Source: an uncultured Candidatus Saccharibacteria bacterium (GTDB lineage: Bacteria; Patescibacteriota; Minisyncoccia; UBA6257; 1-14-0-10-44-23). Taken from it: DNA of 64,000 bases. The position numbers and the translations under genes are program-made. How positions within the stretch are numbered: the stretch's first letter is position 1; every line of letters begins with the position of its first letter. The DNA is taken from the NCBI GenBank assembly GCA_964549935.1, contig CAZJVT010000003.1, positions 159,501-223,500 of the forward strand. Reading direction: 5' to 3'. The notes under the pieces were generated by a model, which worked only from the letters and a program-made list of their open reading frames with translations, did no database searches and was not told the origin of the DNA. Positions 25,101 through 42,134 of the stretch are shown in pieces.

Positions 25101-25115
25101 AAGGAGAGGCGCAGC

Positions 25116-25760
25116 TCAAGCCATCGCTGGCTGCTTGCCGTAGCTGTTGTCGATCATCGCCTCGATGTCGGCGTCCGACATGGGCTCTTCATTGGCCGCC
25201 GCAGGGAGCGGCCGGGTGATTGCGCCGGCGTACTTGTTGGTGAGCTTCGACCATTCCGGCAGGACCGTGTCCATCCCGACGATGCTCTTCTTGGGCTCCT
25301 TGAGAGGCGGCCCGATATAATCGCCCTGCCGCACGATCTCACGGGTCTTGCCCATGGCGTCGACCATGGCGTCGATGACGACGCTGGTCGAGAAGGGCTT
25401 CACGAGCGTCCTGTCCACGCCGGCAAGGCGTGCATGGAAAACGGCTTCCGGGGTCGAGCTTCCGGTAATGCCGATGACTTTCATGCCTTCGCGTCCGCGC
25501 AGGTTGCGCCTGACATGGCGGATTACCTGGAACCCGTTCATCGGCGTCATGAAGAGGTCGGTGATCAGAAGGTCGATGTCTTGGCGCTGCCCCAGGATCT
25601 CGATGGCCTGCTCCCCGTTCTGGGCCTCGTACACCGTGCCGACTTCGGCTTGCCGCACGATCTGGCAAAGGAGCCGGCGGATATAGCTCTGGTCGTCGAC
25701 GACCAGGACCCCCATCGGGCGCGTCTCTTTGGTAAACGAGCGAAGGCGGCCGTCGGTCAT
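25116..25760 (-). CDS. Response regulator with N-terminal CheY-like receiver and uncharacterised C-terminal domain; divergent from the pilus operon
   Basis: VLVVDDQSYIRRL ... DLLITDLFMTPMNGFQV ... KVIGITG; start MTDGRL (or MGVLVV at 25715). Confidence 0.8.
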   Translation of the reverse strand: MTDGRLRSFTKETRPMGVLVVDDQSYIRRLLCQIVRQAEVGTVYEAQNGEQAIEILGQRQDIDLLITDLFMTPMNGFQVIRHVRRNLRGREGMKVIGITGSSTPEAVFHARLAGVDRTLVKPFSTSVVIDAMVDAMGKTREIVRQGDYIGPPLKEPKKSIVGMDTVLPEWSKLTNKYAGAITRPLPAAANEEPMSDADIEAMIDNSYGKQPAMA

Positions 25761-25935
25761 GGTGCCGGTGCAGGTAGTGTGCCGGCGATCACTATAAGCG
25801 TGTAGGCCGCACAGTGTCCACAGAAAGAGCACGATAGGAGAACATCGCCGATCCGGCATGATTTGACCCGAGAAATCAAAGGACTGGAACCTAATTGCCA
25901 TTATCGAGTGTCAGCATGATGTATAGAGAACAGGC

Positions 25936-25965
25936 TTGACGTAAATGCGGGGCCGGCTGGATAAT
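25936..25965 (+). promoter_or_regulatory. Sigma70-like promoter TTGACG-N18-GATAAT upstream of the pilus operon. An IR CCCGCT ... AGCGGG lies at 25980-26002 in the leader.
   Basis: Read directly. Confidence 0.4.
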
Positions 25966-26038
25966 CATTGGGTACGCATCCCGCTTTCATTCTAGGAGCG
26001 GGAAGGTCCGTCGTCAGGGAAGGCAGGATCCTCAGGAC

Positions 26039-27433
26039 ATGAACAAGACCCAGCACGTCCTCCTCGGCGTAGCTCTCGCCGGCATCCTTCTCGGAAGCGG
26101 CTGCACCTCCCTCGGCCTGCCGCGGGAGGCGACGAAGCCCGCGCCGGTGACCTCGGTGAGCGACGCCACCCCGCCTGGGCCCGACAAGACGATCGGAATG
26201 GACCAGACGGCCCTCGTCGACCTCCAGCTCCCGCCTGCCTCCCTCGTTCCCAGGCCCGTCGAGCCCTCGGACAGGGTGCCGGACATCGACGTCCGGAACT
26301 TCAGCGCCTCCGAGGCGAGCTTGATCGAGGCTCTCCAGCTGCTCCTCGGCCGGACCGGCATCCCCGTGACGGTCGAGACCGGTCTCGACACCACGCGCAT
26401 CTCCGCGTTCGGGCTGTCGGGGAAGCTCTCGGACGTTCTCGACCGGCTTTCCGAAGGGGCAGGCGTCTTCTGGCGCTACCGCAACGGCTCTCTTGTCGTC
26501 TCCGGCGATCGGCCCTTCACCGTCGAGATCCCGCCGGTGATGGGCGACGTGGCCGCCGAGGAGATCGTCCGCGGAATCGAAAGCATGGGCGCGCTCCGCG
26601 TTCGCCTCGACCGGACCGCGAGCCTCATCAGCTATCGCGCCGAGCGTCGTGTCCACGACGTCGTCGTCGACTATCTCGAGAAAATCCGGAAATCCAAGTC
26701 GTTGATCGTGTTCCAGGCTTGGCTCCTGGAGGTCACCCTCAACGACCAGCGCCAGCTCGGCATCAACTGGAACGAGCTCGGCTGGAAGTCGGGCGGCGTG
26801 GCCCTCAGCCTGGCCGGGGGCAGCTCCGTCGTCGGCGGCACCACCTTCGGGGCCGTCTATGGCGGCAACCGCTTCTCCATCGACGGCCTGGTCAGCTTCC
26901 TGCAGACGCAGGGCACTCTTTCGACAGTGTCGAAGCCGTCACTCACCATGATCTCGGGCGGCAAGGCCAAGTTCGAGGTCGGCTCGATCGCCCGCTACGT
27001 CAGCAAGGCCGGTTCCAGCACGACGGGATCGACGGTCACCGGAACGACGGAGACCGAGTCCCTCAAGGTCGGCCTGCAGATGGCCATGACCGGCGACTAC
27101 AGCCAGGGCACGGTCTTCTTCAAGGTGGGCCTCGAGATCTCGGACATCACCCGCTTCGATCAGTACGAAGCCTTCGGGCAGCAGCTGAAGCTCCCCCAGA
27201 CGACCAATCGCCTCCTCGAGACGACGGACCGGGCCCGCCCGGGCGACGTGATCCTCCTCGGCGGCATCGTCAGCACACGCGACCAGGTCGACCGGGACGG
27301 CGTCCCGAGCGGCCTTGGGTTCCTTTTTCCCAGGCTCTTCAACGACCAGACCCAGCGTACCGAGCTGGTCGTCGTCTTGATGCCGAAGGTCATCCGTTTC
27401 GTGGACGCCGCGTCCCAGGAGGCCGCACGATGA
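26039..27433 (+). CDS. Lipoprotein secretin of the type IV pilus/T2SS family (BfpB/PilN(R64)/TcpC-like)
   Basis: Lipobox LLGSGC. Secretin C-domain blocks: LIVFQAWLLEVTLND, PSLTMISGGKAKFEVG, VILLGGIVSTRDQVDRDGVPSGLGFLFP. Confidence 0.9.
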   Translation: MNKTQHVLLGVALAGILLGSGCTSLGLPREATKPAPVTSVSDATPPGPDKTIGMDQTALVDLQLPPASLVPRPVEPSDRVPDIDVRNFSASEASLIEALQLLLGRTGIPVTVETGLDTTRISAFGLSGKLSDVLDRLSEGAGVFWRYRNGSLVVSGDRPFTVEIPPVMGDVAAEEIVRGIESMGALRVRLDRTASLISYRAERRVHDVVVDYLEKIRKSKSLIVFQAWLLEVTLNDQRQLGINWNELGWKSGGVALSLAGGSSVVGGTTFGAVYGGNRFSIDGLVSFLQTQGTLSTVSKPSLTMISGGKAKFEVGSIARYVSKAGSSTTGSTVTGTTETESLKVGLQMAMTGDYSQGTVFFKVGLEISDITRFDQYEAFGQQLKLPQTTNRLLETTDRARPGDVILLGGIVSTRDQVDRDGVPSGLGFLFPRLFNDQTQRTELVVVLMPKVIRFVDAASQEAAR

Positions 27434-28068
27434 GGGTCCGTCATTTCTTCCTTGCCGTCGGCGGGCTCGCTGCCATGACCGGTGTCGCGGTGGCCCAGGC
27501 CCCATCGATCCCGATGGCATCGCCACAGGCCGTGACCTCGTTGCCCCAGTCCGGGCCGCAGCCCGGGCCGCTCTCCCTGACGGTGCCGGCGAGCTCTCCG
27601 GGCTCCCTCAACCCCCTGCAGCCTCGTCCCACTCCGCAGGCCATGACGGCCGCGCCGGCCGCGGGCGCCCAGCCCCCGGCAATCGGTGGCCAGGCGCCGC
27701 CTTTCGGACAGACGCTGCCTGCGCCGCCGGCGCTCAACACGCCGGCCCAGGAGGTGAGCTCGAGCGACCTGTCGACGGTCACGATCACCGCGATCATGGA
27801 CGGCGCGGCGGTCCTACGCACCGCCAACAACTCCTACCAGGTCGCGGACAAGGGCATGCTCAGCCACAACGGGCGGCTTTACGGCGTTCGCGTGAAGGAC
27901 GGCGTGGTCACCCTGTTCGACCGCAACCAGCGGCCGGTCTTCGAGGCGACGGTCGGTTCCGGCGTATCGCCCGAACAGCGGTTCTCGTGGACGCGTGCCC
28001 AGTCGTCGTCGGGCAGCGCAACCGGAGCCCCGCCGGCCCCCGCGCCGGCCCCGCTCAAGACGCCCTGA
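27430..28068 (+). CDS. Secreted pilus-assembly accessory protein (Pro/Ala-rich; pilotin or PilP-like?)
   Basis: Signal peptide MRVRHFFLAVGGLAAMTGVAVAQA; ATGA overlap with secretin stop. Confidence 0.6.
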   Translation: MRVRHFFLAVGGLAAMTGVAVAQAPSIPMASPQAVTSLPQSGPQPGPLSLTVPASSPGSLNPLQPRPTPQAMTAAPAAGAQPPAIGGQAPPFGQTLPAPPALNTPAQEVSSSDLSTVTITAIMDGAAVLRTANNSYQVADKGMLSHNGRLYGVRVKDGVVTLFDRNQRPVFEATVGSGVSPEQRFSWTRAQSSSGSATGAPPAPAPAPLKTP

Positions 28069-28070
28069 CC

Positions 28071-29960
28071 ATGCCGGACGACATCCAGCCGACCGAAGGC
28101 CACCAGGCAACCTCCGAACGGCTTGCGCCCGGCCAGCTCGTGGTCTCCGTGACCATGGGGGACGGGACACGGGTCCAGCGGACCGTCATCGGCGGCGAGG
28201 ACCGGACAGTCCATGCCAGGCCGGCGGAACCGGCCAAGGTCAAGCCATCGCAGCTCGCCGTGGCGACGAAGCAGCAGCGGGTCCTTCATGCCGCCGGCGT
28301 CGACAAGGCGATCACCGAGATCCTGATCTCGATGGGCTTCCTGCCGCCGTCCCAGGCGGAGGCCGGATCGGGCCTGTCGAGGCGGAAGCAGGATCCGGGC
28401 GACCTGGTGAGCCTCCGGCTCCAGCAGAACCTTGGCATGAAGATCATGGGCGTCGAACGCGACGTCATATCGGTCGCCCTGACGAAGGCGGCGGACGACT
28501 TCAAGCGGCAGTTGCTCCTCCTCGAAGCCAGGCGTGCCGGCATCGAGGCGAGCCGGATCGAGATCCTTCCGATCGACCGCATGTCGGCGATCGCGCTGCT
28601 CGGCCAGACCCGCGTCGTGCATCGGGACGTGATCGAGAAGCGGATCCAGCGCCTCACCCGCGATCCGGGAGAGGGCTCCCTGCTGCAGCTCATCATCCAG
28701 GAGATCTTCTCCTACGCGGTGCAGATCGATGCCTCGGACATTTCGGTCAAGGTCGAGCCGAGGCATCTGGAGCAGTCGAACGTCGCCTTTCGCGTCGACG
28801 GCACGATGCAGTACGAGTTCTTCCTTCACCCCGACGTCGCCAAGCCGCTCGCGACCAGGCTGAAGGCGATGGCGAACATCGACTTTTCCGACCGCTCGCG
28901 CCCTCACGACAACCGCATCACCCTGCAGGTGGCCGGCCGCGACATCGACGTCCGCGTCGGCGTCGTCCCCACCGATCCAGGGGAGCTCATCACGATGCGC
29001 CTCCTGGACCCCAGGAAGGTTCTCCATATCGGTGATCTGTTCGGATCGATGCCGGCAACCGTCGCCTATATCCGGAGCTTCAATTCCCAGCCGACGAAGT
29101 CGGGCGGCGTCCTGCTGCTTTCGGGCCCCACGGGCTCAGGCAAGACGACGACCCAGAACGCCATCCTCCTCGACGTCGATCGCACCAAGAAAAAGGTCGT
29201 CACGATCGAGAATCCGGTCGAGTACACGATCCCGATGGCGCATCAGATCCAGGTTCAGACCGACGACCAGTGGGCCGAGGCGATGCGCGCCGTTCTTCGC
29301 CACGATCCCGACGTGATCGCGCTCGGCGAGATGCGCGATCGCCGGACGGCCGAGGCATGCAACTCCATGGCCGAGTCCGGGCACAAGGTCACCGTTACCG
29401 TTCATGCCGACGACGGCCCGCAGACGATCAACCGCTTCGCGGACTTCTTCGACGAGAGCAATCGCAAGCATCAGCTGAGCACTCTCGGCTCGCACATCTT
29501 CGGCGTCGTGAACCAGCGGCTTCTCTCGGCGGTGTGCCCTCATTGCTCGAGCAGCGTCGAGGTAGGCGACGAGGGAGCGCACACCACCCGCGAGATCCAG
29601 ATCGCGACGGAGATCCTCAGGATCCCGTCCCGGATGCAGGTGCGCCGGCCGAACCTCGAGGGCTGCGGCCACTGCAACCATACCGGCTACTTCCGGCGGG
29701 TGCTCTCCGTCGAGCAGATCTTCATCCCGCGCGATCATGGCGTCCGGCGCCAGGTGGTCGAGCGCCTGACCGGCGACCTCGTCCATGAGATCGTGGACAT
29801 CGAAGGGGTCTATTTCAGGAGCCACTCGGACCGGATCGTGGAGCTCCTGCAGCAGGGCTACCTCGACCTTTCGATCGCCGCCGGCGTGGTGGAGGCCACG
29901 GGATACGGCTACCGCCGACGAGGGGAGGCGGCCATCGACGTCCGCCAGATTCTCGTATGA
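28071..29960 (+). CDS. GspE/PilB-family pilus assembly ATPase (BfpD/PilQ(R64)/TcpT-like)
   Basis: Walker A GPTGSGKTT. Tetracysteine CPHC ... CGHC zinc motif. Start ATG 28071 just after stop of upstream gene. Confidence 0.9.
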   Translation: MPDDIQPTEGHQATSERLAPGQLVVSVTMGDGTRVQRTVIGGEDRTVHARPAEPAKVKPSQLAVATKQQRVLHAAGVDKAITEILISMGFLPPSQAEAGSGLSRRKQDPGDLVSLRLQQNLGMKIMGVERDVISVALTKAADDFKRQLLLLEARRAGIEASRIEILPIDRMSAIALLGQTRVVHRDVIEKRIQRLTRDPGEGSLLQLIIQEIFSYAVQIDASDISVKVEPRHLEQSNVAFRVDGTMQYEFFLHPDVAKPLATRLKAMANIDFSDRSRPHDNRITLQVAGRDIDVRVGVVPTDPGELITMRLLDPRKVLHIGDLFGSMPATVAYIRSFNSQPTKSGGVLLLSGPTGSGKTTTQNAILLDVDRTKKKVVTIENPVEYTIPMAHQIQVQTDDQWAEAMRAVLRHDPDVIALGEMRDRRTAEACNSMAESGHKVTVTVHADDGPQTINRFADFFDESNRKHQLSTLGSHIFGVVNQRLLSAVCPHCSSSVEVGDEGAHTTREIQIATEILRIPSRMQVRRPNLEGCGHCNHTGYFRRVLSVEQIFIPRDHGVRRQVVERLTGDLVHEIVDIEGVYFRSHSDRIVELLQQGYLDLSIAAGVVEATGYGYRRRGEAAIDVRQILV

Positions 29961-31186
29961 GCAGGTTCTGGCGAACCTCCTTCATGACTGCCGACCGGCC
30001 GGGCATGCCTGCTCGGCGCCTGGAGAAGGAGTTCTTTCTCCCCGACCAGGGTTCGGTACGCCTCGCGGTCGAGCAGATCGGCGGCCGGGTGATCTCCATC
30101 CGGGAGCGGCGCCTTCGGTGGTGGGACGGCGAGATCTTCACCAAGAGCTATCGGCTTCGGTTCCTCCGGACCCTCGGCTTCTTCGTCACCTCGAATTCGC
30201 CCGGCGTCGCCCTGGTGCGAGTCATCGAGACCGAGGAGGACATGCGAAAGCGCGCTCACCTGAACTCGGCCATCGAAGTGATCAACCGAGGCGGGGACTT
30301 CACCCAGGCGGTCCGCTCCATCAAGCTGTTCGACCGCTCGGTGATCGCAATCCTCGAGGCCGGGGAAAGGGTAGGGCGCCTCAGGGAAGCCATCGCCGCC
30401 GCCACCAGCCATGTCGAGAAGCGCGGCAAGAGCCTGAAGATGGTCATGTCTGCGATGGCCTGGTTCTGGATCGACGTCATCTCGACTGTTGCGACCGTGT
30501 TCGAGGTTCATTTCCACGCTCTTCCCTGGATCCGGGAAAACGCCTTCGACGGCGTCAGCGCCGCGAAGAAGGCCGAGATCATGGCTGCCCTCGACCGCGC
30601 GCAGGCGATCAACCTCGGTTTCATGGGGGTGGTCGCGGCCGTCGGCGTCCTGGCGCTTGCGGTCCTGTGGTCGACCTTCCTCGGTCGCGGGCGCGACGAC
30701 AGCGGAAAGCGCAACGTGATGAGCCTGATCCCAGGTCTCAGCACGATGGTCGTTTCCGCCGGCATCGCCGAGACCTTCTCGATCGTCTCACGGATGGTGG
30801 CTGGCTCCGCGCCCTTCTCGGAAGCGGTACGTGCCGCGGAACAGGCGACGATCGTCGGCAGCGTCTCCGGGTTCTGGAAGCGCGTCGGCGAGATGATCGG
30901 GAACGGCTGGGGCATCGACAAGGCGATGGCCAGGCATCCGCTGAGCCATGCCGAACGGATGGAGATCTCCGGCCACCGCAACCTGAGCCAGCTCGTCGAC
31001 GTGATGTCCTCCATCGCCGAGACCCGGGAGCAGACGGCCGAGCGTTACCTCAAGATGATCTCGAGCCTGTCCATCCTGGGGGTCCTGCTGTTCGGAGCCG
31101 GGGTCACCCTCAACGTCCTCTACGTCGTGTGGGTCCAGAACGAAGGCTTCACCAGCTCGATGCAGTCGATCATGGGCGGCGGCTGA
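29957..31186 (+). CDS. GspF/PilC-family inner-membrane platform protein (BfpE/PilR(R64)/TcpE-like)
   Basis: ~409 aa polytopic. Duplicated T2SS-F-like halves. ATGA overlap with ATPase. Confidence 0.85.
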   Translation: MSRFWRTSFMTADRPGMPARRLEKEFFLPDQGSVRLAVEQIGGRVISIRERRLRWWDGEIFTKSYRLRFLRTLGFFVTSNSPGVALVRVIETEEDMRKRAHLNSAIEVINRGGDFTQAVRSIKLFDRSVIAILEAGERVGRLREAIAAATSHVEKRGKSLKMVMSAMAWFWIDVISTVATVFEVHFHALPWIRENAFDGVSAAKKAEIMAALDRAQAINLGFMGVVAAVGVLALAVLWSTFLGRGRDDSGKRNVMSLIPGLSTMVVSAGIAETFSIVSRMVAGSAPFSEAVRAAEQATIVGSVSGFWKRVGEMIGNGWGIDKAMARHPLSHAERMEISGHRNLSQLVDVMSSIAETREQTAERYLKMISSLSILGVLLFGAGVTLNVLYVVWVQNEGFTSSMQSIMGGG

Positions 31187-31277
31187 AGCGGGGTAATCCC
31201 GATTTCCTCGGCATATGGGCCTGCCGGCGCCGAATGTTTCTTTGTATAAGCAGGTGCAAACAGTATAATAGACCGCC

Positions 31278-32132
31278 ATGGCCAGACCGCCCGACAGCTT
31301 CACCCCGGATTCGATCGTCATCGGACACGTACCCCTGGGTGCGGGCTCGGAAGCCCGGGATGCCGCCTACTGGGAGGCGCAGAGGGCCCTGGACGAGGAA
31401 GCGCTCCATCTCCTGCTGGTCGAAGGCCAGGACGAGGTCCGTTTCATGGCGGCGCCCAGTAGGGATTTCGTCGGCGCGCCCTTCGGGGCCACCTCGATCC
31501 TGGCCGCGGCCTTTCCCGGTCATCCAGGGCATGTCGGCGACGGCGCCTATCTCGCGGACGCGCCGACCGGCGTCGCCTGTATCGTCTGCAAGCATGGCGA
31601 GCTTCTTCTTTTCGTGGGCGATCGGAATGCCGTGGAGGCGTTCGCCAGGCATAACGAAGCCGACATCGTAGAGCCGTCGAGCGGTGCCGGACCGGCCTGG
31701 GAAGGCTTCCGCATCGGGTCGCTCCGACGTCATGGCCGGATGGCGATGACCGCGCTTCTTGCCGCCGCCGCCGTCAGTATCGTCATGGCCGTGGTCTGGG
31801 TGGCATCGGCGCTGACCCTTTCCGGATCGGCCGAGGTCGAGGCGCAGATCAGGTCCACCGCGGATGCGGGCATGCGCGCCGCCGCCCAGGAGCTGACCAA
31901 GGCCGTACGCCAGCCCCTGGCCGACGACCTTTCATACTTCCAGCAGATCGCCGCGATCACCGCCGGGACGGGTGGCTGGATCAAGGAATTCAAGATCACG
32001 AACGGCCAGGCCACCTGGTCGGCCGAGTTCCCTATGTGGGTGACCGCCGATCAGCTCCAGGCTCTCGGCCGCAACCTGAAGACCCGGGCCGACGACGCCA
32101 AGGGTGTCGTGATCGTCGAGGGATCGCGCTGA
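31278..32132 (+). CDS. Bitopic inner-membrane pilus biogenesis protein (BfpC/PilM-like candidate)
   Basis: Central TM ALLAAAAVSIVMAVVWVASAL; operon context. Confidence 0.6.
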   Translation: MARPPDSFTPDSIVIGHVPLGAGSEARDAAYWEAQRALDEEALHLLLVEGQDEVRFMAAPSRDFVGAPFGATSILAAAFPGHPGHVGDGAYLADAPTGVACIVCKHGELLLFVGDRNAVEAFARHNEADIVEPSSGAGPAWEGFRIGSLRRHGRMAMTALLAAAAVSIVMAVVWVASALTLSGSAEVEAQIRSTADAGMRAAAQELTKAVRQPLADDLSYFQQIAAITAGTGGWIKEFKITNGQATWSAEFPMWVTADQLQALGRNLKTRADDAKGVVIVEGSR

Positions 32133-32254
32133 TGTCCATGAACCCGAGGACAGTTATCAATGCCGGCAGGGTCGCGGCCGCGATCAGTGTCGCGATGGCG
32201 ACGGTGTGGCTGATCTACCTACTGAAATTGCTGGTCAAGAGCGCCCCGCTATGA
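32132..32254 (+). CDS. 40-aa single-TM peptide (pilus operon small subunit)
   Basis: ATGA overlaps at both ends (32130-32134 and 32251-32254). Confidence 0.4.
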   Translation: MSMNPRTVINAGRVAAAISVAMATVWLIYLLKLLVKSAPL

Positions 32255-32742: not shown

Positions 32743-32784
32743 ACGGCACCTCCGACGGCAGTGGCGGGCCCTGCATCGCCGCGC

Positions 32785-32811
32785 TTGAACAGAGGCCGAC
32801 AGGCTTATACT
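32785..32811 (+). promoter_or_regulatory. Possible internal promoter (TTGAAC ... TATACT) ahead of the major pilin gene
   Basis: Read directly; spacer about 15 nt (suboptimal). Confidence 0.3.
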
Positions 32812-32835
32812 ATGGTCAACCAGGAGAATGAACCC

Positions 32836-33570
32836 ATGCGTGCCCAGATGACGAACCTCCTTTCCGGTCTCGGCGTTGCCGGTTTGCCGATCAGGTCCGT
32901 GTCGGCCCGGACTTCCGCGAATGCCGGCTTCGGCACCTCCGCGGTCCTCCTCGTCGTCGTTCTCATCGCAGCGATCGGCGCCTTCTTCGCCTACTCGACC
33001 CGCGGCAGCAACGTGACCTCCGCCCAGTCGACGAATTCCATCGGGGCGACCACGATCATCGACCAGGGCACCCAGATGCGCTCCGGCTTCGAGCGCATGC
33101 TGGCGAACGGCTCGGCCGCGAGCCAGGTGACCTTCGACACGGCGGCGACTACCGGCCTGTTCAATCCGACGACCGGTGGCACGGGCGACCAGCCGCCGCC
33201 GCAGCGGAACCTGACGGACGAGGCGATCGCGGGCTCGGCCCCCTTCGCGGCGGCCGTCACGACCTACAGCTACAAGACGGGCGTGACCGGTCCCGCGAAC
33301 GTCGGCACCGCTGCCGGCCTCAAGTACGGCGTGTTCCTCCCGGGCGTGAAGCTGGCCGTCTGCCAGGCGATCAACAACCAGCTCTACTCGGATTCGCTGA
33401 GCGCGACGCCGGTGGCGAGCGGTCTTGCCGTCACGGCCTTCGTCGGCGGCGCGGCTGTCGACCTGACCGCCGGCGCCATGGCCGCCGGCCTCAGCCAGCG
33501 CTCCGAGGGCTGCATCGGCACCACCAGCGCCAACCAGTACGTCTACTACAAGGTCATGTACGTGCAGTAA
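32836..33570 (+). CDS. Type IVb major prepilin (long leader, about 30 aa, ending ...SANAG|FGTSAVLLVVVLIAAIGAFFAY; C-terminal Cys pair)
   Basis: SD AGGAGA 9 nt upstream of ATG 32836. Hydrophobic alpha1-N after G|F. C...C disulfide region LAVCQ ... EGCIG. Confidence 0.7.
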   Translation: MRAQMTNLLSGLGVAGLPIRSVSARTSANAGFGTSAVLLVVVLIAAIGAFFAYSTRGSNVTSAQSTNSIGATTIIDQGTQMRSGFERMLANGSAASQVTFDTAATTGLFNPTTGGTGDQPPPQRNLTDEAIAGSAPFAAAVTTYSYKTGVTGPANVGTAAGLKYGVFLPGVKLAVCQAINNQLYSDSLSATPVASGLAVTAFVGGAAVDLTAGAMAAGLSQRSEGCIGTTSANQYVYYKVMYVQ

Positions 33571-33572
33571 CG

Positions 33573-34076
33573 ATGGGCTGGATCAGCGCACTCATCGCCG
33601 CGATCGTCCTGAGCGGCGTCGTCGCCGCCTCCCAGGCGCGGAGCGGATCGACGGCCGCGAAGGTCCAGCGCATCGACACGGCTGTCGCCTCGCTCAATGC
33701 GCAGGCGAACATGACCCGTCAGGTGCTGACGCAATGCGCGCTCGACTATCCGTCGGGCGACAACGGCACCGGCTTCACCATCGCCTACCCGGCAGCGACG
33801 GCCGCAACGGCGCTCACCGGGCTGCAGTGCCCGGGGGCGCCTGCCGGCTTCAAGGACTTCTGGGGTGGCCGCAACGGCGTTTTCGAACCCGTGGCGCCAT
33901 CGGGCTTCGGCGCCTGGACCTACCTGAACAATGCCACCGGCGTCAGCCTGACGATCACGGCGGCGAGCGCCGATGCGGCTCTCGTCGCCGCCATGGACCG
34001 GGTGGCAGCGGCTTATTCGGCCACCGAGGCCACCCGCAGCGGGCTTTCACTCACCGTCTGGATCATCCGGCTATGA
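33573..34076 (+). CDS. Minor pilin-like protein
   Basis: N-terminal hydrophobic helix MGWISALIAAIVLSGVVAAS; Cys pair. Confidence 0.55.
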   Translation: MGWISALIAAIVLSGVVAASQARSGSTAAKVQRIDTAVASLNAQANMTRQVLTQCALDYPSGDNGTGFTIAYPAATAATALTGLQCPGAPAGFKDFWGGRNGVFEPVAPSGFGAWTYLNNATGVSLTITAASADAALVAAMDRVAAAYSATEATRSGLSLTVWIIRL

Positions 34077-34732
34077 GCAACGCGCGCAATCGCCAGGGCG
34101 GTTTCGCCCAGACCATCGCCATCGTCGCGATCGGCCTCGCGGCCGCCATCGGTCTTTCGGCTTCCTTCGCCTTCCGTCAGGCCAACGCCACCTCGCGCGG
34201 CCTCCAGAAGGAGCAGGTGAGGGGAGACCTCAGCCAGCTCGCCAAGCAGCTGGCGCTGATGTCGACGCCGGATTCTTCCGGGATCCTGACCGCCCCGGCC
34301 TTCGTCACGCCGACCTCGGGGACGCCGCCGACGAACGGCGGCAAGCTCCCGTCTTCCATCGCGACACGCACGACGACGCCCCAGGGAACCCCGTTCGGCT
34401 ACTGCCCGGTCAAGCTCGGCGATACCGCGGGCGCGGGGAACCGGATCGCCACCGGCGGAACGCCGGGTAGCTCGACGATCCTGTTCGCCCTGATCTCTCC
34501 CGGCGCCGACAGGGTCTTCCAGACCACATGCCCCGATGCGATCGCCGGCACCAGCTTAGGCGACGACGCGATCTTTCGAGCCCGCCACAGCGACGTGCAG
34601 CGCGTGGTCTACGAGGCGGCTGCCGACCGGCTGGGCCATAGCAGCTTCCAGGCCGCGGAGATGCGTTGCGCCGTCGACGGCAAGCTTTTCCAGCCATTCG
34701 CCACGGGCAAGGACGCCCGCGGCTGCAAATAG
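34073..34732 (+). CDS. Minor pilin-like protein (class III signal-like QGG|FAQTIAIVAIGLAAAIG)
   Basis: ATGA overlap with upstream pilin. G|FA motif shared with 32836 and 35271 genes. Confidence 0.6.
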   Translation: MSNARNRQGGFAQTIAIVAIGLAAAIGLSASFAFRQANATSRGLQKEQVRGDLSQLAKQLALMSTPDSSGILTAPAFVTPTSGTPPTNGGKLPSSIATRTTTPQGTPFGYCPVKLGDTAGAGNRIATGGTPGSSTILFALISPGADRVFQTTCPDAIAGTSLGDDAIFRARHSDVQRVVYEAAADRLGHSSFQAAEMRCAVDGKLFQPFATGKDARGCK

Positions 34733-34741
34733 GACCAGCAG

Positions 34742-35212
34742 ATGACCAATCGCATTCCCGTGAAGATCTCGCTCTCGCCCGAATACGACCGCTCCTGGGG
34801 CCCGCCGGGCTACGCCAAGCCCGGCGACGCTGGGTTCGATCTCCGCGCCCTCATCAAGGCGCCGATCGAGATCCGCGCCGAAGAGCAGCACCTGATCCCG
34901 ACCGGCCTCCGCATCGCCGTGCCGCCGGGGTTCGAGCTGCAGGTCCGGCCGCGGTCGGGCCTGGCGCTCAAGCACGGCCTGACGATCGTCAACTCGCCGG
35001 GCACGGTCGATTCCGGCTATCGCGGCGAGGTCGTCATCATCGCCTATCGCCTCAAGGGGCTCGGCGACGACAGCAAGCTCGTCGTCAAGCCAGGCGACCG
35101 CATCGCCCAGGGCGTCATCGCGCCGGTCTACCAGGCCGACTTCGATGTTGTCGACGAGCTCGACGAGACCGAGCGCGGGAGCAGCGGCTTCGGCTCCAGC
35201 GGCAGCAACTGA
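34742..35212 (+). CDS. dut: dUTP diphosphatase (trimeric dUTPase) embedded in the pilus operon
   Basis: All five dUTPase motifs present: GDAGFDL, RPRSGLALKHG, GTVDSGYRGEV, GDRIAQG, RGSSGFGSSG. 10-nt gap to upstream pilin gene, 59 nt to downstream pilin gene. Confidence 0.9.
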   Translation: MTNRIPVKISLSPEYDRSWGPPGYAKPGDAGFDLRALIKAPIEIRAEEQHLIPTGLRIAVPPGFELQVRPRSGLALKHGLTIVNSPGTVDSGYRGEVVIIAYRLKGLGDDSKLVVKPGDRIAQGVIAPVYQADFDVVDELDETERGSSGFGSSGSN

Positions 35213-35270
35213 TCCTTCGACCGGAAGCGCGGCCGGCATGGGTGCCGCGATCATGCAGAAGAGGTGTGCG

Positions 35271-37541
35271 ATGTTCAGCTTCATCAAGACCGGCTTCGGG
35301 ACCCGAGAAAGCCAGCGGGGTTTCGCCGCCGCGACCGTCCTGAGCGGGATCCTCCTCGCCGGCCTCGCCGCCGGCGTCATGTATTCGGGCTGGTCGTCGA
35401 CTCAGCGCACCACCGCCTCCCTGACCAAGTCGTCCAACAACGACTCGCTGATGTCGCAGGTCCGGGCGGCGATCATCTCGGAGCACGCCGATCTCGACGG
35501 CGACGGCACGCCGGAAGGTCCGGCGCCGCTGACCGGGGTCACGCCCATCCCGACTGGCGGCGGGCAGATCCCGGCGAGCTCGAAGGCGCCGAAGACCGAT
35601 GGCTGGGGCACCGCCTTCGGCTATTGCGCCTTCAAGAACGGCTCCGGCGCCGATCGCGCCGGATACATCCGGAACACGGCGACCTCGACCGGCGGCGAGA
35701 TCAGCTTCGCGATCATCTCCGCCGGCTCCGACAAGACGATCCAGACCACCTGCGCGCAGGCACTGACCCAGTCGGCGCAGGGCGACGACAAGCTCGCCAC
35801 ATACTCGCTCGCCGACGTGACGCTGTCTGGCGTCACCTTCAGCGGGGCCGGCTCGGGCACCAACTCCACCGACGTCCAGAACAAGCAGGTCGCCTGCGTC
35901 GCGAGCGGGAAGCTCTACGCAGGCGTCGGCGCGACCGGAGCGGATGCGAACGGCTGCATCGCGCCGGCCGGTTCCGGCGGCGGCATCGTCACCGACGCGC
36001 AGGGCCGCCTGGCGGTCTCCTGCACGCATATCTCGCAGCTCGTGACCAATCCGAGCGACGGCGAGTACATGCTCCTCGGCGTTCCGACCGACGGGTCGCT
36101 GCCGGCGATGTATCCGACGGAATGCGACTTCACCACCTGGGGTGGGAAGTGGACGATGGTCGCGAAGTACGACCCGACAGCGGCCTGCCCGGCCACGATG
36201 AAGGCTGGCGGCGTCTGCTCGGCGCCGTCGGACGGCATCGACCTGATGAACATGAGCCGGATCTCGAACGACATGACGTCGGTCCGGGCTCTCACGAACG
36301 CGCTTCGCTACCTGAAGCCGTTCAGCGAGATCATGATGAAGGACGCGAACGGGTCCTTCATCGTCTGGAACTGCGGCGGGAACCAGAGCCGGTCATGGTA
36401 CGAGCGCTACCTCGTCTATGGCGGAGCCGAGACCTGCTCGATCAGCAGCTCGACCTTCCATAATGGCGGGACCAAGTCGCTCAACACGCTGACGCCGAGG
36501 TTCCAGGTCAACCTGACCGGATTCCGGGAGCTGACTTCGACGCCGTTTTCCTGGTGGTCCTGTCCCGCCTACTCGAATTGCGACGGCGACTGGACCATCC
36601 GGACGACGGTGCAGCGCGACTATCCGGGATATTCGGGCAACTACTATTTCAATGCCGGCTATGTCTACATGCCGGCGCGCGGGACCAACGGCGTGGCCGA
36701 CTGGTACCTCAAGGTCTGCGATCTCTCGACGCTTGAGACGCGTGACGTCGTCTCGCCGATCGGCGGCACCTACGCGAATGGGTGCCAGGCGAGCTGGATC
36801 AGCACCTTCCGGGGACCGTGGAGCTTCACGTCCGGCCCGCGTCACGACTGGAGCTACGCCGTCGACTATCCCGGCGACGAAAACAACATCCTTCCCAGCC
36901 TGGCGCATCTCGCCACGCAGCCGCGGCCGAACCAGAACTGGGCACCGGACTATCAGCTCACGATTGTCTCGCCCGCGGCCATCAACGGCACCGGCTGGCA
37001 TCAGCGACTGAACTTTTCGGCACCGAATCCGTCCGACAGCAACAACGTCTGCAATTTCGGCTATGGCCAGTACGACGCCTACTGGGGCAACGGCGCCGCT
37101 GCCGCGGGAGTCTTCTTCCGACCTACCAGCTATCTCGTCTACGGCAACGGCACGCTCTCGAGCGTCCAGATGGGCTACGCCGGTCCGTGGCAGGATGCCT
37201 ATGCCTACTGGGAGTTCACCGGCGGCACCGGACAGAACTTCGCCATCCCCGGCTATGTCGACCTCAAGTATTCGATGATCAACGGCTCGGGCAACGGGCG
37301 GTCGATCTGTGCCGGTACCCGCAAGCTCTACTGGGGGTACCTGCATCAGGATGGCTACTGCGTCTTCCAGCAATACAAGGACTTCCATGCTTCCGGATAC
37401 TGGATGTGGCAGGACGGATGCCAGGCCCAGCAGGCTTTCAACAAGACCGAGACCGCGTTCAACGCGCTGCCGGGAAGCGTGCCCCTGGGGTTCGTGAAGT
37501 CCTTCATGCCGACGGACATCCGGAAGATCTATATCCGGTGA
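35271..37541 (+). CDS. Large pilin-like protein (756 aa): N-terminal prepilin-type segment RG|FAAATVLSGILLAGLAAGVMY, Cys-rich middle, Trp/Tyr-rich C-terminal domain. Putative tip adhesin / initiator minor pilin (PilV/TcpB/CofB analogue).
   Basis: SD AAGAGG 7 nt before ATG 35271. Multiple Cys pairs. Aromatic-rich C-terminus suggests carbohydrate binding. Confidence 0.65.
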   Translation: MFSFIKTGFGTRESQRGFAAATVLSGILLAGLAAGVMYSGWSSTQRTTASLTKSSNNDSLMSQVRAAIISEHADLDGDGTPEGPAPLTGVTPIPTGGGQIPASSKAPKTDGWGTAFGYCAFKNGSGADRAGYIRNTATSTGGEISFAIISAGSDKTIQTTCAQALTQSAQGDDKLATYSLADVTLSGVTFSGAGSGTNSTDVQNKQVACVASGKLYAGVGATGADANGCIAPAGSGGGIVTDAQGRLAVSCTHISQLVTNPSDGEYMLLGVPTDGSLPAMYPTECDFTTWGGKWTMVAKYDPTAACPATMKAGGVCSAPSDGIDLMNMSRISNDMTSVRALTNALRYLKPFSEIMMKDANGSFIVWNCGGNQSRSWYERYLVYGGAETCSISSSTFHNGGTKSLNTLTPRFQVNLTGFRELTSTPFSWWSCPAYSNCDGDWTIRTTVQRDYPGYSGNYYFNAGYVYMPARGTNGVADWYLKVCDLSTLETRDVVSPIGGTYANGCQASWISTFRGPWSFTSGPRHDWSYAVDYPGDENNILPSLAHLATQPRPNQNWAPDYQLTIVSPAAINGTGWHQRLNFSAPNPSDSNNVCNFGYGQYDAYWGNGAAAAGVFFRPTSYLVYGNGTLSSVQMGYAGPWQDAYAYWEFTGGTGQNFAIPGYVDLKYSMINGSGNGRSICAGTRKLYWGYLHQDGYCVFQQYKDFHASGYWMWQDGCQAQQAFNKTETAFNALPGSVPLGFVKSFMPTDIRKIYIR

Positions 37542-37677
37542 CAGACCGGCCGGCCGGTTCCACCGCTCTTGAACCGGCCGGCTGACGTCGAAAAGGCTTG
37601 ACACCGTCGTTTCTTCCTTGCCCCGTGTAAAACTGTCCGCTATATGCTTTAGGCGACAGAATCATACGGAGCAGACG

Positions 37678-38451
37678 ATGACCACGCATCCCAGCACCCC
37701 GGAGGCTCAAGCCCAGGTGGCTCGGACCTGCGTCGTTCGCTTCTTCCAGACTTTGAAGCCCGAAAACGGACCGCTGAACGAGCTGCCGCCGGTCCTGGCT
37801 AAGCTTCGGACCGCCGCGTTGGCCGCTGGGCTCCTGGGCGCTCTCGGCGCCCATCCGGGTCCCGCGCATGCCGGCGATCCCGCCTCGCAGCTCCGGCTGA
37901 GGGTTGTCGCCGCTGCCGCGATGCAGGGTCTCGTCGCCGACCGGTCCGGACTTCTGCTCGATCTCGAGCTCGCCGAGGCGGCCGGGCGAGCTCAGGCGGC
38001 GCTCCTGGACAAGGGCCCGGGCTCCAGCTCCGGCTGGGCGTCCCGAGACCGCGCGATCGAGGCCAAGACCGGCTACGTGGCGTCGGCGCGGATGCCTGTC
38101 GTGACCTGGCGGAAGGAGTTTCGCGAGTCAGCCGTGCCGGACGCGCGACCGGGCGAGGAATGCGCGGTTCTGGTCACTGCATTCACCGGCTTCCCTGGCG
38201 GCAAGCCCGCCGACATCGCGACGCTGTTCTGCCGGGGGCGCGAAGGCTGGCGCCTGGTGGACATGGGCGACTGGGCGAGGGTCTACGAGTCCCTCCGGGA
38301 TGCGGGGGCCGAGATGCGGAATGCCGCTGCTTCGCCGGCGCCGGTCCATACCGGCGAAAGCGGGGAGCCCTGCCTGGAGACCTCCGAGGAGATCCAGGTC
38401 GGCGGCCGCACGGAGACCGCGTTCGGCATCGCCTGCCGCATGCCGTCGTAA
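37678..38451 (+). CDS. Secreted hypothetical protein, paralog of 39652..40360
   Basis: N-terminal VVRFFQTLKP motif then hydrophobic AALAAGLLGALGA; C-terminal block GEECAVLVTAFTGFPGG ... GWRLVDMG. Confidence 0.6.
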   Translation: MTTHPSTPEAQAQVARTCVVRFFQTLKPENGPLNELPPVLAKLRTAALAAGLLGALGAHPGPAHAGDPASQLRLRVVAAAAMQGLVADRSGLLLDLELAEAAGRAQAALLDKGPGSSSGWASRDRAIEAKTGYVASARMPVVTWRKEFRESAVPDARPGEECAVLVTAFTGFPGGKPADIATLFCRGREGWRLVDMGDWARVYESLRDAGAEMRNAAASPAPVHTGESGEPCLETSEEIQVGGRTETAFGIACRMPS

Positions 38452-38477
38452 CAGCGAAGTTCCTGGAAAATGCCTGA

Positions 38478-38508
38478 GGGCGGCGGATCGATCCGCCGCC
38501 CTTCTTCA
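38478..38508 (+). terminator. Rho-independent terminator: perfect 24-bp palindrome GGGCGGCGGATCGATCCGCCGCCC followed by TTCTTC
   Basis: Read directly, 27 nt after stop of 37678..38451. Confidence 0.6.
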
Positions 38509-38602
38509 TGCCGGCGCGCAGCCCCATGCAAGGGGCTTTGGCGCTTTCTTGGAACGCATGATAAACTGTATTCGCACTTATATTCACCAGGAGCCGTTCG
38601 TC

Positions 38603-38935
38603 ATGACCCTGCACAACGCCAACGCCCTGCCGATGAAAGGCACCTATCGCTCGGTGCCCCTGGCTCTCGGCTGCGCGCTCGCGATCAGCGCCGAGGCCGG
38701 CGCGGCCGTCCTGGGCTACGAGGACGAGCGGTTCAAGGATACGACCCGGGTCCTGCTCTATACCGCGAGCAACAAGATGGTGGCGCAGCTGAAATCGGGC
38801 CGCGCGATCGATCTGGGCGAGGTCGATGTCCAGACCGCGGAGGACATCAAGGGCCTTCGCACCCTCGTCATCTCCCGTCCAGGCGAGAACGCCGGCGAGC
38901 TCGACAGCCAGTTCGTCAGCATCCGACGCATCTAG
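38603..38935 (+). CDS. Small secreted protein (110 aa)
   Basis: SD AGGAG 8 nt before ATG; signal peptide LALGCALAISAEAGAA. Confidence 0.55.
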   Translation: MTLHNANALPMKGTYRSVPLALGCALAISAEAGAAVLGYEDERFKDTTRVLLYTASNKMVAQLKSGRAIDLGEVDVQTAEDIKGLRTLVISRPGENAGELDSQFVSIRRI

Positions 38936-38966
38936 GCCGTTTCCCCAGGTCCAAAGGAGACCTCCG

Positions 38967-39641
38967 ATGAGCACCGCCAACGCCTTCGTCGCCAGCTTCT
39001 TCGCCGGACTCCGTGCCGAGCCCCTCAAGGCTGCCGACAGGGAGTCCGAGAGCCGCACGCCGATCCTCGATCGCCTGCGCGGCGTGGTCGCCGTGGCCAT
39101 CGTCGCCGCGGTCCTGGCACCGACCGGTGCCCAGGCCCAGTCCCTCGGCATCAATACCCCGACGATCATGGGCATCCTCGGCGCCGCCGGCGGCGCATGG
39201 GGCGGCAGCCAGATCGGCCGCGGCGCCGGCAAGACCGCGGCGATCGCCGTCGGCACGCTGCTCGGTAGCGGCCTCGGATGGGAGGCTGGGAAGTACCTGG
39301 ACTCCCAGGGCGAGGCGGCGAAGGTCGCCCTTTCCCAGGCTCAGCTCGGTCAGCGCGTCGCCTGGCAGGACCAGGGCGCGTCCGGCTACTTCATGCCGAT
39401 CCGCGAAGGCGTCTCGATGCAGACCGGGCTGCAGTGCCGCGAGTACCAGACCGAGATCGTCGTGGGCGGGCAGCGCCAGGCCGGCTACGGAACCGCCTGC
39501 CTGCAGCCGGACGGCCACTGGCAGATCGTTTCCTCGGGCCAGGCTCGCCAGGGCGCCCAGTACAATCCGGCGCCGGCCTACGGACAGCCGATGCCTACCT
39601 ATGCCGGCCAGACCGGAATGAGCTACGGCTCGCGCTACTAG
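38967..39641 (+). CDS. Glycine-zipper membrane/surface protein (17-kDa-antigen / SlyB-like Gly-zipper) with Gln/Tyr-rich C-terminus
   Basis: GILGAAGGAWGGSQIGRGAGKTAAIAVGTLLGSGLGW; SD AAAGGAGA; N-terminal FVASFFAGLR motif. Confidence 0.6.
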   Translation: MSTANAFVASFFAGLRAEPLKAADRESESRTPILDRLRGVVAVAIVAAVLAPTGAQAQSLGINTPTIMGILGAAGGAWGGSQIGRGAGKTAAIAVGTLLGSGLGWEAGKYLDSQGEAAKVALSQAQLGQRVAWQDQGASGYFMPIREGVSMQTGLQCREYQTEIVVGGQRQAGYGTACLQPDGHWQIVSSGQARQGAQYNPAPAYGQPMPTYAGQTGMSYGSRY

Positions 39642-39651
39642 GTCCTCGAGA

Positions 39652-40360
39652 GATGACCGAAGCGGTACGCGATCGAACCTCCGCGAGCGACCGGGGAGCC
39701 GCAAGCGCCCTGGTCGCTTCCTTCTTCCGGCACCTGCGACCTGTTGACGATGCTCTCCCGCGGGTCCTGCGCCGGCTCCGCATCGCCGCTCTCGCGATCG
39801 GCCTGCTGTCGACCACGGCCTTCTCGACGTCATCCGTGGCGGATGCCGGGCCCGGCGACGGGCTCAGGCTCGCGACCGCGGCCGCCCTCCAGGCCGTCAC
39901 CGGCGAGCGGGACGGCATGACCTTCGACCTCGATGCCCTCGACGCAGCAAGCCGGGCGCATATGGCTCTCCTCGAAACGGTGTCGAGCGGCCGGACCGGT
40001 GCCGCAAGGGCCTGGACAGGCGACGACGGCCGGACCAGCGGCAAGACGCTGCTCGCGTCCGTGTCTCGTATCGGACAGGGCAAGAGCTTCGAGGACGGGA
40101 AGGACAGAAGCGGCGCGGAATGCGCGGCCTTGATATCGGCGGCCAGCTTCAGCGGCCGTGGCCCCATGGTCTCGGCGACACTCGTCTTTTGCAGGGCGTC
40201 GGGCGAAAGATGGGAGCTCGTGGATGCGGGCTCCAATGTCTCGACTCTTCAGGAGCTGCACAAGAAGCTCGCCGATGCTCTCGCGCGCCCGGACCTGCCG
40301 CGTGCGAGTGCCGAGGCGACCAGCCAGTCCGGCATGTCCGGCATCGGCAGCAGTCTCTGA
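39652..40360 (+). CDS. Secreted hypothetical protein, paralog of 37678..38451
   Basis: LVASFFRHLRP motif then LRIAALAIGLLS; C-terminal GAECAALISAASFSGRG ... RWELVDAG. Confidence 0.6.
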
Positions 40361-40402
40361 AATCGAAGTCGTAGCTTTCGGTCAGCCGCTTCGCCGCAAG
40401 CG

Positions 40403-42127: not shown

Positions 42128-42134
42128 GCGCCCC

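Follow-up and report, generated by a model that had tools for sequence, protein, structure and literature searches.

A 64,000-nucleotide stretch of contig CAZJVT010000003.1 (assembly GCA_964549935.1, deposited as an uncultured Candidatus Saccharibacteria bacterium; hereafter the window) carries at one locus the genes for a complete type IV pilus of a small, uncharacterised clade, and on balance we consider that this pilus most likely makes or holds the contact between a conjugating donor and its recipient. An earlier note on the same DNA had read the locus as a type IVb-like pilus operon on a GC-rich, plasmid-like alphaproteobacterial replicon. The same gene order occurs in about 12 loci, on betaproteobacterial conjugative megaplasmids, on Micavibrio chromosomes and in metagenomes; we refer to them as the family and number loci and contigs with the prefix L.

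Since the G+C content of the window ranges from 61 to 71%, raw lists of its open reading frames (ORFs) are noisy. Third-position GC frame analysis resolved one coherent gene string on the forward strand, from 26039 to 40360, with the gene at 25116-25760 divergent from it, and the same genes were obtained from the ORF list and from independent gene calls on contigs L089-L091, which are 100% identical to the window. The type IV pilus gene cluster is real, complete and contained in a single locus. Its operon occupies 26039-37541, where ten pilus-related genes are contiguous and co-directional, and the ATGA couplings on one strand that the earlier note had described are seen in the coordinates at 27430-27433, 29957-29960 and 34073-34076. 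The secretin, accessory protein, ATPase, platform, prepilin, two minor pilins and 756-aa pilin-like ORF that it had listed were all recovered by profiles or gene calls. This inventory was sound, but a dUTPase gene inside the operon (34742-35212) had been overlooked, and the proposed extension of the operon to 40360 did not hold: three paralogues and a 110-aa ORF, not shown to be pilus genes, fill 37678-40360. Scanning the entire window for Rfam families and tRNAs gave no match, no tRNA, rRNA or housekeeping gene was seen in it, and megablast of 25000-41000 against 72,556 plasmids returned no match.

The operon, all of it on the forward strand, opens with an outer-membrane secretin (26039-27433; Pfam Secretin, 74.5 bits). 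It is a probable lipoprotein whose signal peptide ends in LLGSGC↓TS (arrows mark cleavage), and a lipobox-like Cys stands at the end of the signal peptide in seven of eight family secretins. Its best solved relative in the PDB is BfpB (50.7 bits, versus 28 for GspD), and the hidden Markov model (HMM) of the family secretin matches PilN of plasmid R64 at 65.8 bits. Scores against the curated NCBIfam models were 101.6 bits for MshL (cutoff 250.2), 64 for GspD (cutoff 351) and 56.7 for PilN-IVB (cutoff 287.65). The protein shows no recognisable long periplasmic N0-N3 region. The following gene (27430-28068) encodes a secreted accessory protein of 212 aa with a signal-peptide-like N-terminus, one hydrophobic segment, a Pro-rich linker and a C-terminal domain of about 90 aa. 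This protein has no match in Pfam, NCBIfam or by hhalign; its slot is occupied by a gene in every family locus, and the sequence is conserved only among close relatives.

The assembly ATPase (28071-29960; Pfam T2SSE, 228 bits) is of the GspE/PilB class and has the tetracysteine motif, its residues C489, C492, C532 and C535 being invariant in 16 family members (alignment A1). Its N-terminal region of about 200 aa is family-specific and matches none of the N1E, MshEN or T2SSE_N domains of Pfam. Against NCBIfam the protein scored 236 bits with GspE (cutoff 630), 196 with PilB (cutoff 676) and 39.4 with the TadA-type model (cutoff 373); in the PDB it scored 161 bits with EpsE/GspE, about 158 with PilB/PilF and 72 with BfpD, and among reference operons derived from plasmids 175 bits with GspE, 78 with R64-type PilQ and 64 with CofH. 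A search of 5.8 billion proteins returned one close homologue (84% identity) and about 14 full-length ones at approximately 30-35%, all other matches being restricted to the C-terminal core. The gene for the inner-membrane platform, of GspF/PilC type, comes next (29957-31186), with two T2SSF stretches (43.2 bits) and 32.5 bits against the NCBIfam GspF model (cutoff 424); the platform family HMM scores about 24 bits with each of GspF, PilR and CofI and so favours none of them.

Two further inner-membrane proteins follow. The larger one (31278-32132) is bitopic, with one transmembrane (TM) segment at residues 153-185 between a cytoplasmic N-domain and a periplasmic C-domain, and is a putative component for anchoring or aligning the ATPase. 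It matched neither GspL, PilO, CofE/F nor any PDB sequence; tblastn found it conserved in L001, L006, L007, L008 and L010, and the gene in the same slot of L004 and L005 aligns with it at just 18% identity (alignment A4). The smaller one (32251-32742) has one N-terminal TM segment, and a similar-sized gene lies in the same slot of family loci; it matched neither GspM, PilP nor CofG. Three small membrane proteins had been proposed here, of which these two are conserved, whereas the third is a 40-aa hydrophobic ORF (32132-32254) that was called as a gene on the identical contigs and lies in a segment of about 119 bp absent from the 81%-identical locus L001. It may have been inserted in this lineage alone, or it may not be a gene at all.

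The prepilin peptidase was correctly placed outside the operon, 23 kb away on the reverse strand (60814-61560). It has 248 aa, scores 41.9 bits with Peptidase_A24 (cutoff 26.5), carries the motifs IADARTGQLP and GGGDAK, and is the sole A24 protein that the scan of window ORFs found; a methyltransferase domain was not recognised in it. It belongs to a reverse-strand string (57222-62644) that also encodes an LPD7-domain protein, a secreted Gly_rich_2 protein, an RNase_T/DnaQ-like exonuclease and a pentapeptide-repeat protein. The secreted glycine-rich protein, beside the peptidase, could be pilus-associated or a secreted factor.

The presumed major prepilin (32836-33570) came top of the class-III-like N-termini of the window in a motif scan and is 100% identical to the called protein P0121 (244 aa). 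Its N-terminus reads MRAQMTNLLSGLGVAGLPIRSVSARTSANAG↓FGTSAVLLVVVLIAAIGAFF, with the cleavage context SANAG↓FGTSAVLLVVVLIAAIG, so that the leader of about 30 aa and the G↓F junction read earlier become a 31-aa leader cut between G31 and F32 and a mature protein of 213 aa with a C-terminal Cys pair. As in class III signals, Gly-1 precedes a hydrophobic stretch and an A24 peptidase is present, and cleavage is predicted. Across 12 family pilins Gly-1, the hydrophobic stretch and two C-terminal Cys are invariant or shared, with leaders from about 8 to 45 aa.

None of these 12 pilins has Glu at position +5, which in the major pilin is Ala, unlike PilS of R64, CofA, CofB and GspG, all of which have it. 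Type IV pilins carry Glu5 "often, but not always", and the residue is believed to pair with the amine at the N-terminus of the next subunit (PMC10191384). That the entire family lacks it, the presumed major subunit included, is a distinguishing trait, and agrees with the failure to detect a methyltransferase domain in the peptidase. The next gene (33573-34076, G8) encodes the most conserved pilin-like member of the family and extends this observation: a search of 1.84 billion proteins gave 213 cluster representatives of the G8 type with E<=1e-3, and 120 of 150 representatives have a KxG↓F hydrophobic N-terminus, where +1 is mostly Phe and +5 is most commonly Tyr (45) and never Glu (0 of 120). 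By these counts the family is real but rare. In the window G8 itself has a vestigial leader, with only "MG" before the hydrophobic stretch; most of the 150 representatives have a basic leader of 6-20 aa, and a minority have none.

The last two pilin-like proteins are related to each other. The minor pilin-like G9 (34073-34732, 219 aa, RQGG↓FAQTIAIV) is a paralogue of residues 12-229 of the putative tip adhesin (35271-37541, 756 aa, class-III-like SQRG↓FAAATVL), with 33% identity and an E-value of 9e-22, and the adhesin can therefore be read as a G9-like module (residues 1 to about 230) plus a unique C-terminal extension of about 525 aa. The module is kept across the family, with G9-like modules also in L008, L010 and L093, and the extension is not. 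Compared with the closest relatives the adhesin is only 55-58% identical, versus 92% for the platform, 89% for the secretin and 84% for the ATPase, a difference that is characteristic of receptor-binding proteins. The extension has no match apart from a fibrinogen-like GGGWT motif below threshold (20 bits, cutoff 30), and searches of the PDB with the C-terminal half of the adhesin and with the bitopic family gave nothing meaningful, the pentatricopeptide matches being low-complexity artefacts.

Tip proteins elsewhere in the family carry domains known from phages. Three adhesin paralogues in L093 end in the phage tail-fibre domain phrog_4492 (E 3.5e-29 to 7.7e-55), a plasmid of Rhodoferax (L008) encodes a 1049-aa tip protein with a tail-fibre/decoration domain followed by a tail-fibre assembly gene, and the tip protein of L006, of more than 2783 aa, carries the tailspike-chaperone domain Peptidase_S74. 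These genes lie at 5105-10153 in L093, where five pilin and three adhesin paralogues stand in tandem, at 15825-20457 in L008 and at 17230-21830 in L006. Inversion of the R64 shufflon type was considered for the window and rejected, the repeats around the adhesin gene being just weak GC-rich chance matches.

In an unrooted neighbour-joining (NJ) tree of 37 ATPases the family was monophyletic in 100 of 100 bootstraps, CofH and PilQ formed a separate clade (99 of 100), and GspE/PilB formed a third group. Together with the fact that every curated equivalog cutoff of NCBIfam for pilus components was missed by a wide margin, this makes it well indicated that the machine forms a poorly known lineage of its own rather than a demonstrable member of the R64/Bfp/Tcp/Cof group, to which it may possibly be a sister. 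The features of the MSHA pilus were not matched either (MshL 101.6 vs 250.2 bits, no T2SSE_N domain, one 212-aa protein between secretin and ATPase).

The order shared by the family is an optional response regulator, the lipoprotein secretin, the accessory protein, the ATPase, the platform, a bitopic protein of about 300 aa, another of about 170 aa, one or more pilins, the G8-type pilin and one or more large tip proteins. Close relatives of the window (L001, L002 and L092) come from two Logan runs; the remaining loci include L006 (a 375-kb metagenomic contig), L010 (a Rubrivivax metagenome-assembled genome, MAG), L011 (an alphaproteobacterial MAG) and L093. Two lie on plasmids, namely RPME01 of Methylibium petroleiphilum PM1 (L007, 362302-370107, MOBP/MPF_F) and a plasmid of Rhodoferax ferrireducens T118 (L008, NC_007901.1, about 156-172 kb, MOBH/MPF_T). 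Both have the gene order of the window and homologous secretin, ATPase, bitopic and G8-type proteins at 25-36% identity. Homologues of the platform, the major pilin and the N-module of the adhesin turned up on the Rhodoferax plasmid, whereas tblastn found no match for these in the Methylibium one; the Rhodoferax locus has a response regulator upstream and, unlike the window, two secretins, two pilins and a peptidyl-prolyl isomerase (PPIase).

Micavibrio-like chromosomal loci (L003-L005, L009 and L012) lie near a 170-aa A24 peptidase and plsY-dprA-topA, the peptidase gene being divergent from the operon in L003-L005. They have no large adhesin, and their accessory protein runs to 545 aa and contains Ig-like (ASH/HYDIN) domains; with them go a co-transcribed response regulator, the adjacent A24 peptidase and a hybrid histidine kinase. 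With relatives on betaproteobacterial plasmids and Micavibrio chromosomes, the system is not peculiar to this type of replicon. The Methylibium and Rhodoferax genes are mostly annotated "hypothetical protein", and our literature search found no paper that describes the pilus family or these two clusters. Scanning GTDB genomes with the ATPase alignment yielded mostly generic GspE/PilB proteins among the matches listed, and does not amount to a census.

The surroundings of the locus point to a mobile element. At the right edge of the window (62847-64000, forward strand) a probable cluster for a type IV secretion system (T4SS) of mating-pair-formation type I (MPF_I) begins, with a 173-aa ORF, a TrbN-like lytic transglycosylase (63368-63877; TrbN, 85.8 bits) and the start of DotM/IcmP. 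Contig L099, which is 100% identical to 51583-64000 of the window and runs 8.6 kb beyond it, adds DotM_C (136 bits, cutoff 27), a 912-aa TrbC/DotL-like coupling protein (TrbC_conju, 337 bits; equivalog cutoff 800) and DotA/TraY (TIGR04346, 106.3 bits; cutoff 100), so that DotM, the DotL/TrbC-like protein and DotA/TraY all lie on one contig within 9 kb of the A24 peptidase; no gene for TraU/VirB4, TraJ or a relaxase turned up in these 8.6 kb. The closest plasmid coupling proteins, at 34-39% identity, come from Rhizobium, Bosea, Thalassospira, Roseomonas, Methylorubrum and Piscirickettsia and are mostly alphaproteobacterial. The first of the two HipA proteins of the window has 57-63% identity to plasmid proteins from Rhodopseudomonas, Bradyrhizobium, Methylobacterium and Rhizobium, alphaproteobacteria only, which makes the alphaproteobacterial replicon suggested earlier plausible; the element is probably an alphaproteobacterial mobile element.

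MPF_I is rare, and no other transfer type is known to work alongside a type IV pilus for mating in liquid (PMC4027160, PMC10286972); R64 combines its MPF_I T4SS with such a pilus, which it requires for liquid mating (PMC10286972, PMC4027160). The analogy that had been drawn with the R64 thin pilus thus gained a probable MPF_I transfer system at its side, and this neighbour together with the plasmid-borne relatives favours a role in mating contact.

From the gene content, family membership, pilin motifs and adjacency to the T4SS we infer piliation, a tip location for the large protein, receptor binding and a part in transfer, along the following lines. The major prepilin (32836-33570) and the minor ones (33573-34076, 34073-34732 and 35271-37541) would be inserted into the inner membrane and cut after their invariant Gly by the A24 peptidase, probably without N-methylation. 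A zinc-type hexameric ATPase, held by the two bitopic proteins, would drive the platform to polymerise the subunits, and the filament would leave through the secretin, a probable lipoprotein that would pilot itself. The 756-aa protein, its short paralogue and the G8-type pilin may prime assembly and end up at the tip, where the fast-evolving C-terminal domain of the adhesin could bind a surface receptor. The pilus would in this way stabilise mating pairs, especially in liquid, with general adhesion or aggregation as the fallback role.

Several observations weigh against this picture. The pilins had no pilin match in Pfam, NCBIfam or the PDB (a profile search of the PDB with the pilin family reached PilE, 3soj, at E 0.047 only). 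Structure prediction, which had been proposed as a check, gave no usable model for either of the two ORFs covered: AlphaFold 2 (AF2) gave the major pilin a helix at 34-90 followed by strands at a mean predicted local distance difference test (pLDDT) score of 41.5 from a 4-sequence alignment, and the adhesin, from five sequences, reached a pLDDT of 31.6; at these values both folds are unverified. In three loci (L006 17185-17300, L008 15825-15900 and L010 about 12020-12250) the adhesin module is preceded by an ordinary-looking Sec signal peptide, which makes its "pilin-like" character lineage-dependent: it holds for the lineage of the window and for L093, and in some lineages the module may join the tip without being a true pilin. 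No second ATPase of this kind, and no retraction ATPase or PilT, was found in the window or the 8.6-kb extension. The ATPase tree drew on few references, among which MSH, Com and Tad were not represented, and with so small a reference set the separate clade is well indicated, not proven. Finally, both plasmid relatives are betaproteobacterial and have MPF_F and MPF_T systems, in contrast to the MPF_I of the window, and the chromosomal, apparently non-conjugative Micavibrio members imply that the family is not dedicated to conjugation.

Since such chromosomal members exist, adhesion independent of transfer is a serious alternative, although we judge it the less probable by some way. The pilus would then serve attachment to hosts or surfaces, aggregation, biofilm formation or, perhaps in Micavibrio, attachment to prey, and the T4SS would be a coincidental neighbour in the cargo. 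Family members on chromosomes have no visible transfer genes, the conserved linkage to a response regulator suggests environmental control, and the weak lectin-like fibrinogen-type motif of the adhesin fits binding to many surfaces. In the window, however, the cluster sits amid genes for transfer and DNA processing, 22 kb from the MPF_I cluster that the peptidase adjoins; two further members are on conjugative plasmids; and tips of the tail-fibre type are best known for recognising bacterial cell surfaces.

Another rival reading is an ordinary type IVb pilus of the R64/Bfp/Tcp/Cof kind that had merely diverged in a GC-rich alphaproteobacterial host, the affiliation that the earlier note had preferred. 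The layout agrees with this: a single locus, a probable lipoprotein secretin, a 31-aa leader, a 213-aa mature pilin, a pilin-like tip protein of large size and a peptidase gene outside the operon, although clustering in one locus does not discriminate type IVb pili (Pelicic, PMC10191384). BfpB is the closest solved secretin, the family HMM matches PilN, the MPF_I neighbourhood is that of R64, and 77 of 100 NJ replicates grouped the family with CofH and PilQ against GspE/PilB. Membership in the clade is another matter, and we regard it as improbable. The ATPase scores two to three times higher with GspE/PilB than with PilQ, CofH and BfpD (161-175 bits for GspE vs 64-78), the secretin falls far short of the PilN equivalog (56.7 vs 287.65), no homologue of PilL/M/O/P/T or CofC/E/F/G is detectable, no pilin has the Glu5 of PilS, CofA and CofB, and the 77% split may be the result of long-branch attraction. 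Searches for the accessory proteins of R64 and Cof by phmmer, family HMMs and hhalign gave no significant match, and hhalign against single GspC/L/M, PilM/O/P and CofC/E/F/G sequences gave probabilities below 2% in every case.

Set beside the individual systems, the window is close in design to R64, where pilI-pilV likewise places a type IV pilus and an MPF_I T4SS on one conjugative element (PMC10286972, PMC4027160). Both have the order secretin, ATPase, platform, pilin and large tip pilin, with other genes between, and the secretin of the window is a probable lipoprotein like that of R64, whose PilN is the best profile match of the family secretin. The synteny comparison with R64 that had been called for showed this similar gene order. 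The ATPase is 27% identical to PilQ (78-92 bits), PilL/M/O/P/T have no homologue, the peptidase gene lies outside the operon and a dUTPase gene inside it, and PilS begins G↓MTLLEV, with Glu5, whereas the pilins of the window lack this residue. The tip protein varies fast in both, PilV of R64 being varied by a shufflon.

Bfp, Tcp and Cof/Longus share with the window a small number of components in one operon, and BfpB is the nearest secretin of known structure. In these pili non-homologous bitopic proteins replace PilMNOP, and a large minor pilin, CofB or TcpB, forms the tip and initiates assembly (PMC10191384); the 756-aa protein would be analogous to it. Their ATPases match far less well than GspE (BfpD 72 and CofH 64 bits vs 161-175), the window shows no similarity to CofC/E/F/G/J, and it does not share their pathogenicity-island context.

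Neither of the outcomes that had been named as refuting a type IVb-like pilus, a Tad system or a type II secretion system (T2SS), was found: the TadA-type score is 39 bits, and GspC and GspH-M have no detectable homologue. The second deserves weighing all the same, in the form of a T2SS-like machine whose short periplasmic pseudopilus pushes proteins through the secretin and never becomes a surface pilus. The ATPase core with its tetracysteine motif is closest to GspE/EpsE, its best curated and solved match, and to PilB/PilF, the platform resembles GspF/PilC, one ATPase without a PilT serves the system, and a gene for a secreted glycine-rich protein adjoins that of the peptidase. Moreover, the genome paper of Micavibrio aeruginosavorus reports a "functional T2SS" without GspC/G/H/K (PMC3189940), which may be a member of this family. 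We nonetheless consider a T2SS quite unlikely. The equivalog thresholds for T2SS and type IVa components were missed more than 2.5-fold (GspE 236 vs 630, GspD 64 vs 351), and the secretin is short and probably lipidated. GspC/H/I/J/K/L/M have no homologue by sequence or profile, there is no pseudopilin set, and GspG gave hhalign matches at the level of the N-terminal helix only (26-44% probability). The pilins are large and lack Glu5, the mature major one having 213 aa vs 144 aa for the full-length GspG precursor, and tips of 756 to more than 2783 aa with tail-fibre and tailspike domains would be hard to fit into a periplasmic pseudopilus. A Tad/Flp (type IVc) pilus, usual in Alphaproteobacteria and compatible with the high-GC, probably alphaproteobacterial background and the small A24 peptidase without a detected methyltransferase domain, can be dismissed, since the ATPase scores 39 bits with the TadA type vs 236 with GspE and has the tetracysteine motif, one platform gene with two T2SSF stretches replaces a TadB/TadC pair, the pilins have 167-756 aa instead of the roughly 60 aa of Flp, and no match of the RcpA/CpaC type was reported.

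If a pilus for mating contact is the right reading, conjugation-linked thin pili would not be confined to enteric IncI plasmids and the islands of gammaproteobacteria but would have reached GC-rich Alpha- and Betaproteobacteria as well, by way of a separate lineage of machines, and would offer a handle on how environmental megaplasmids and integrative and conjugative elements (ICEs) locate recipients in liquid. The absence of Glu5 across the family would challenge the model in which pilins dock by a salt bridge from Glu5 to the N-terminus, and would provide a natural test case for it: pilins without Glu5 and probably without methylation would imply a different docking chemistry in the filament core. 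Tips of the phage tail-fibre type would link the evolution of pilus adhesins with that of phage receptor-binding proteins, and the range of recipients might be predicted or re-engineered from these modular tips. Since clusters of this kind are annotated as hypothetical or as partial T2SS, censuses of pili and T2SS miss or misclassify them. The interest of the locus lies in its Glu5-less pilins, its modular tips of the tail-fibre type and an R64-style "two-pilus" design in environmental Alpha- and Betaproteobacteria. Going further, one could tentatively see in it a seventh lineage of bacterial type IV filaments, a further subtype under Pelicic's lettering, marked by these pilins, its own ATPase clade and tips whose conserved pilin-like or adaptor module is joined to exchangeable receptor-binding domains of the phage tail-fibre type, with which mobile elements of Alpha- and Betaproteobacteria would select recipients as with a "grappling hook"; we find this attractive, if somewhat short of an even chance.

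Upstream of the operon, the divergent gene on the reverse strand (25116-25760) is the response regulator that had been proposed (Pfam Response_reg, 73.8 bits), with a receiver domain and a C-terminal region of about 80 aa. A receiver-domain gene also lies directly 5' of the secretin gene in L001, L003-L005, L008, L009 and L012. A consensus scan placed a sigma-70-like promoter, TTGACG-18-GATAAT, at 25936-25965 on the forward strand (10 of 12 positions, a consensus match only). Of the promoter and leader inverted repeat read in this region earlier, the promoter-like hexamers are kept in L001, but the inverted repeat (25980-26003) is not conserved in the alignment with that locus. Both hexamers fall within a block of about 65 bp (25900-25965, ATCGAGTGTCA..ATGATG.ATAGAGAACAGGCTTGAC) that is near-invariant between the window and L001 (about 2940-3010), while the remaining intergenic region has diverged; the block is a candidate site for binding of a regulator.

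The dUTPase encoded within the operon (34742-35212, forward strand) is recognised by Pfam (dUTPase, 84.8 bits) and by phrog_135 (177.6 bits). In the approximately 80% identical locus L092 its gene (5003-5479) lies 3' of the adhesin gene and not 5', so the order is swapped and both genes stay in the operon. Downstream of the operon, on the same strand, gene calls on L089 gave the three paralogues (37678-38451, 38967-39641 and 39653-40360), which are not shown to be pilus genes, and the 110-aa ORF (38603-38935) has a lipobox-like LALGC. The paralogues G12 and G14 are 35% identical (E 5e-22), one of the three has a weak match to 17kDa_Anti_2, and in all of them an FVxxFFxxLRP-like motif near the N-terminus precedes a hydrophobic stretch, which exceeds the TM threshold only in G13. 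G12 and the 110-aa ORF are conserved in L092 and absent from the distant loci of the family.

Between these genes and the peptidase string, 40403-50480 encodes a 574-aa Toprim/topoisomerase-IA-like protein below all topoisomerase cutoffs, a 975-aa RecD2-like helicase, a DsbG-like isomerase (129 bits, cutoff 124), an ATP-dependent DNA ligase with a WGR domain at its N-terminus and RecJ. A competence pilus was considered because RecJ, the ligase, the helicase, the topoisomerase and the dUTPase are nearby, and was rejected as the principal reading: ComEA, ComEC and DprA are missing among the window ORFs scanned, and the genes in question are typical conjugative cargo. On the left side of the window, two HipA-like kinase genes on the reverse strand (17644-18945 and 19509-20945) are each followed by a small overlapping ORF (18935-19273 and 20942-21289), and a gene for an AAA ATPase on the same strand (16305-17459) adjoins the pair (region 16305-21289). 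Genes for maintenance and regulation of the kind usual in mobile elements lie at 3371-4051, 8491-10340 and 21480-24203. They encode a ParA/MipZ-type ATPase, a tyrosine recombinase with a fragment of a ClpP-like protease directly after it, and an S24 peptidase resembling LexA, from which a helix-turn-helix (HTH) gene diverges.

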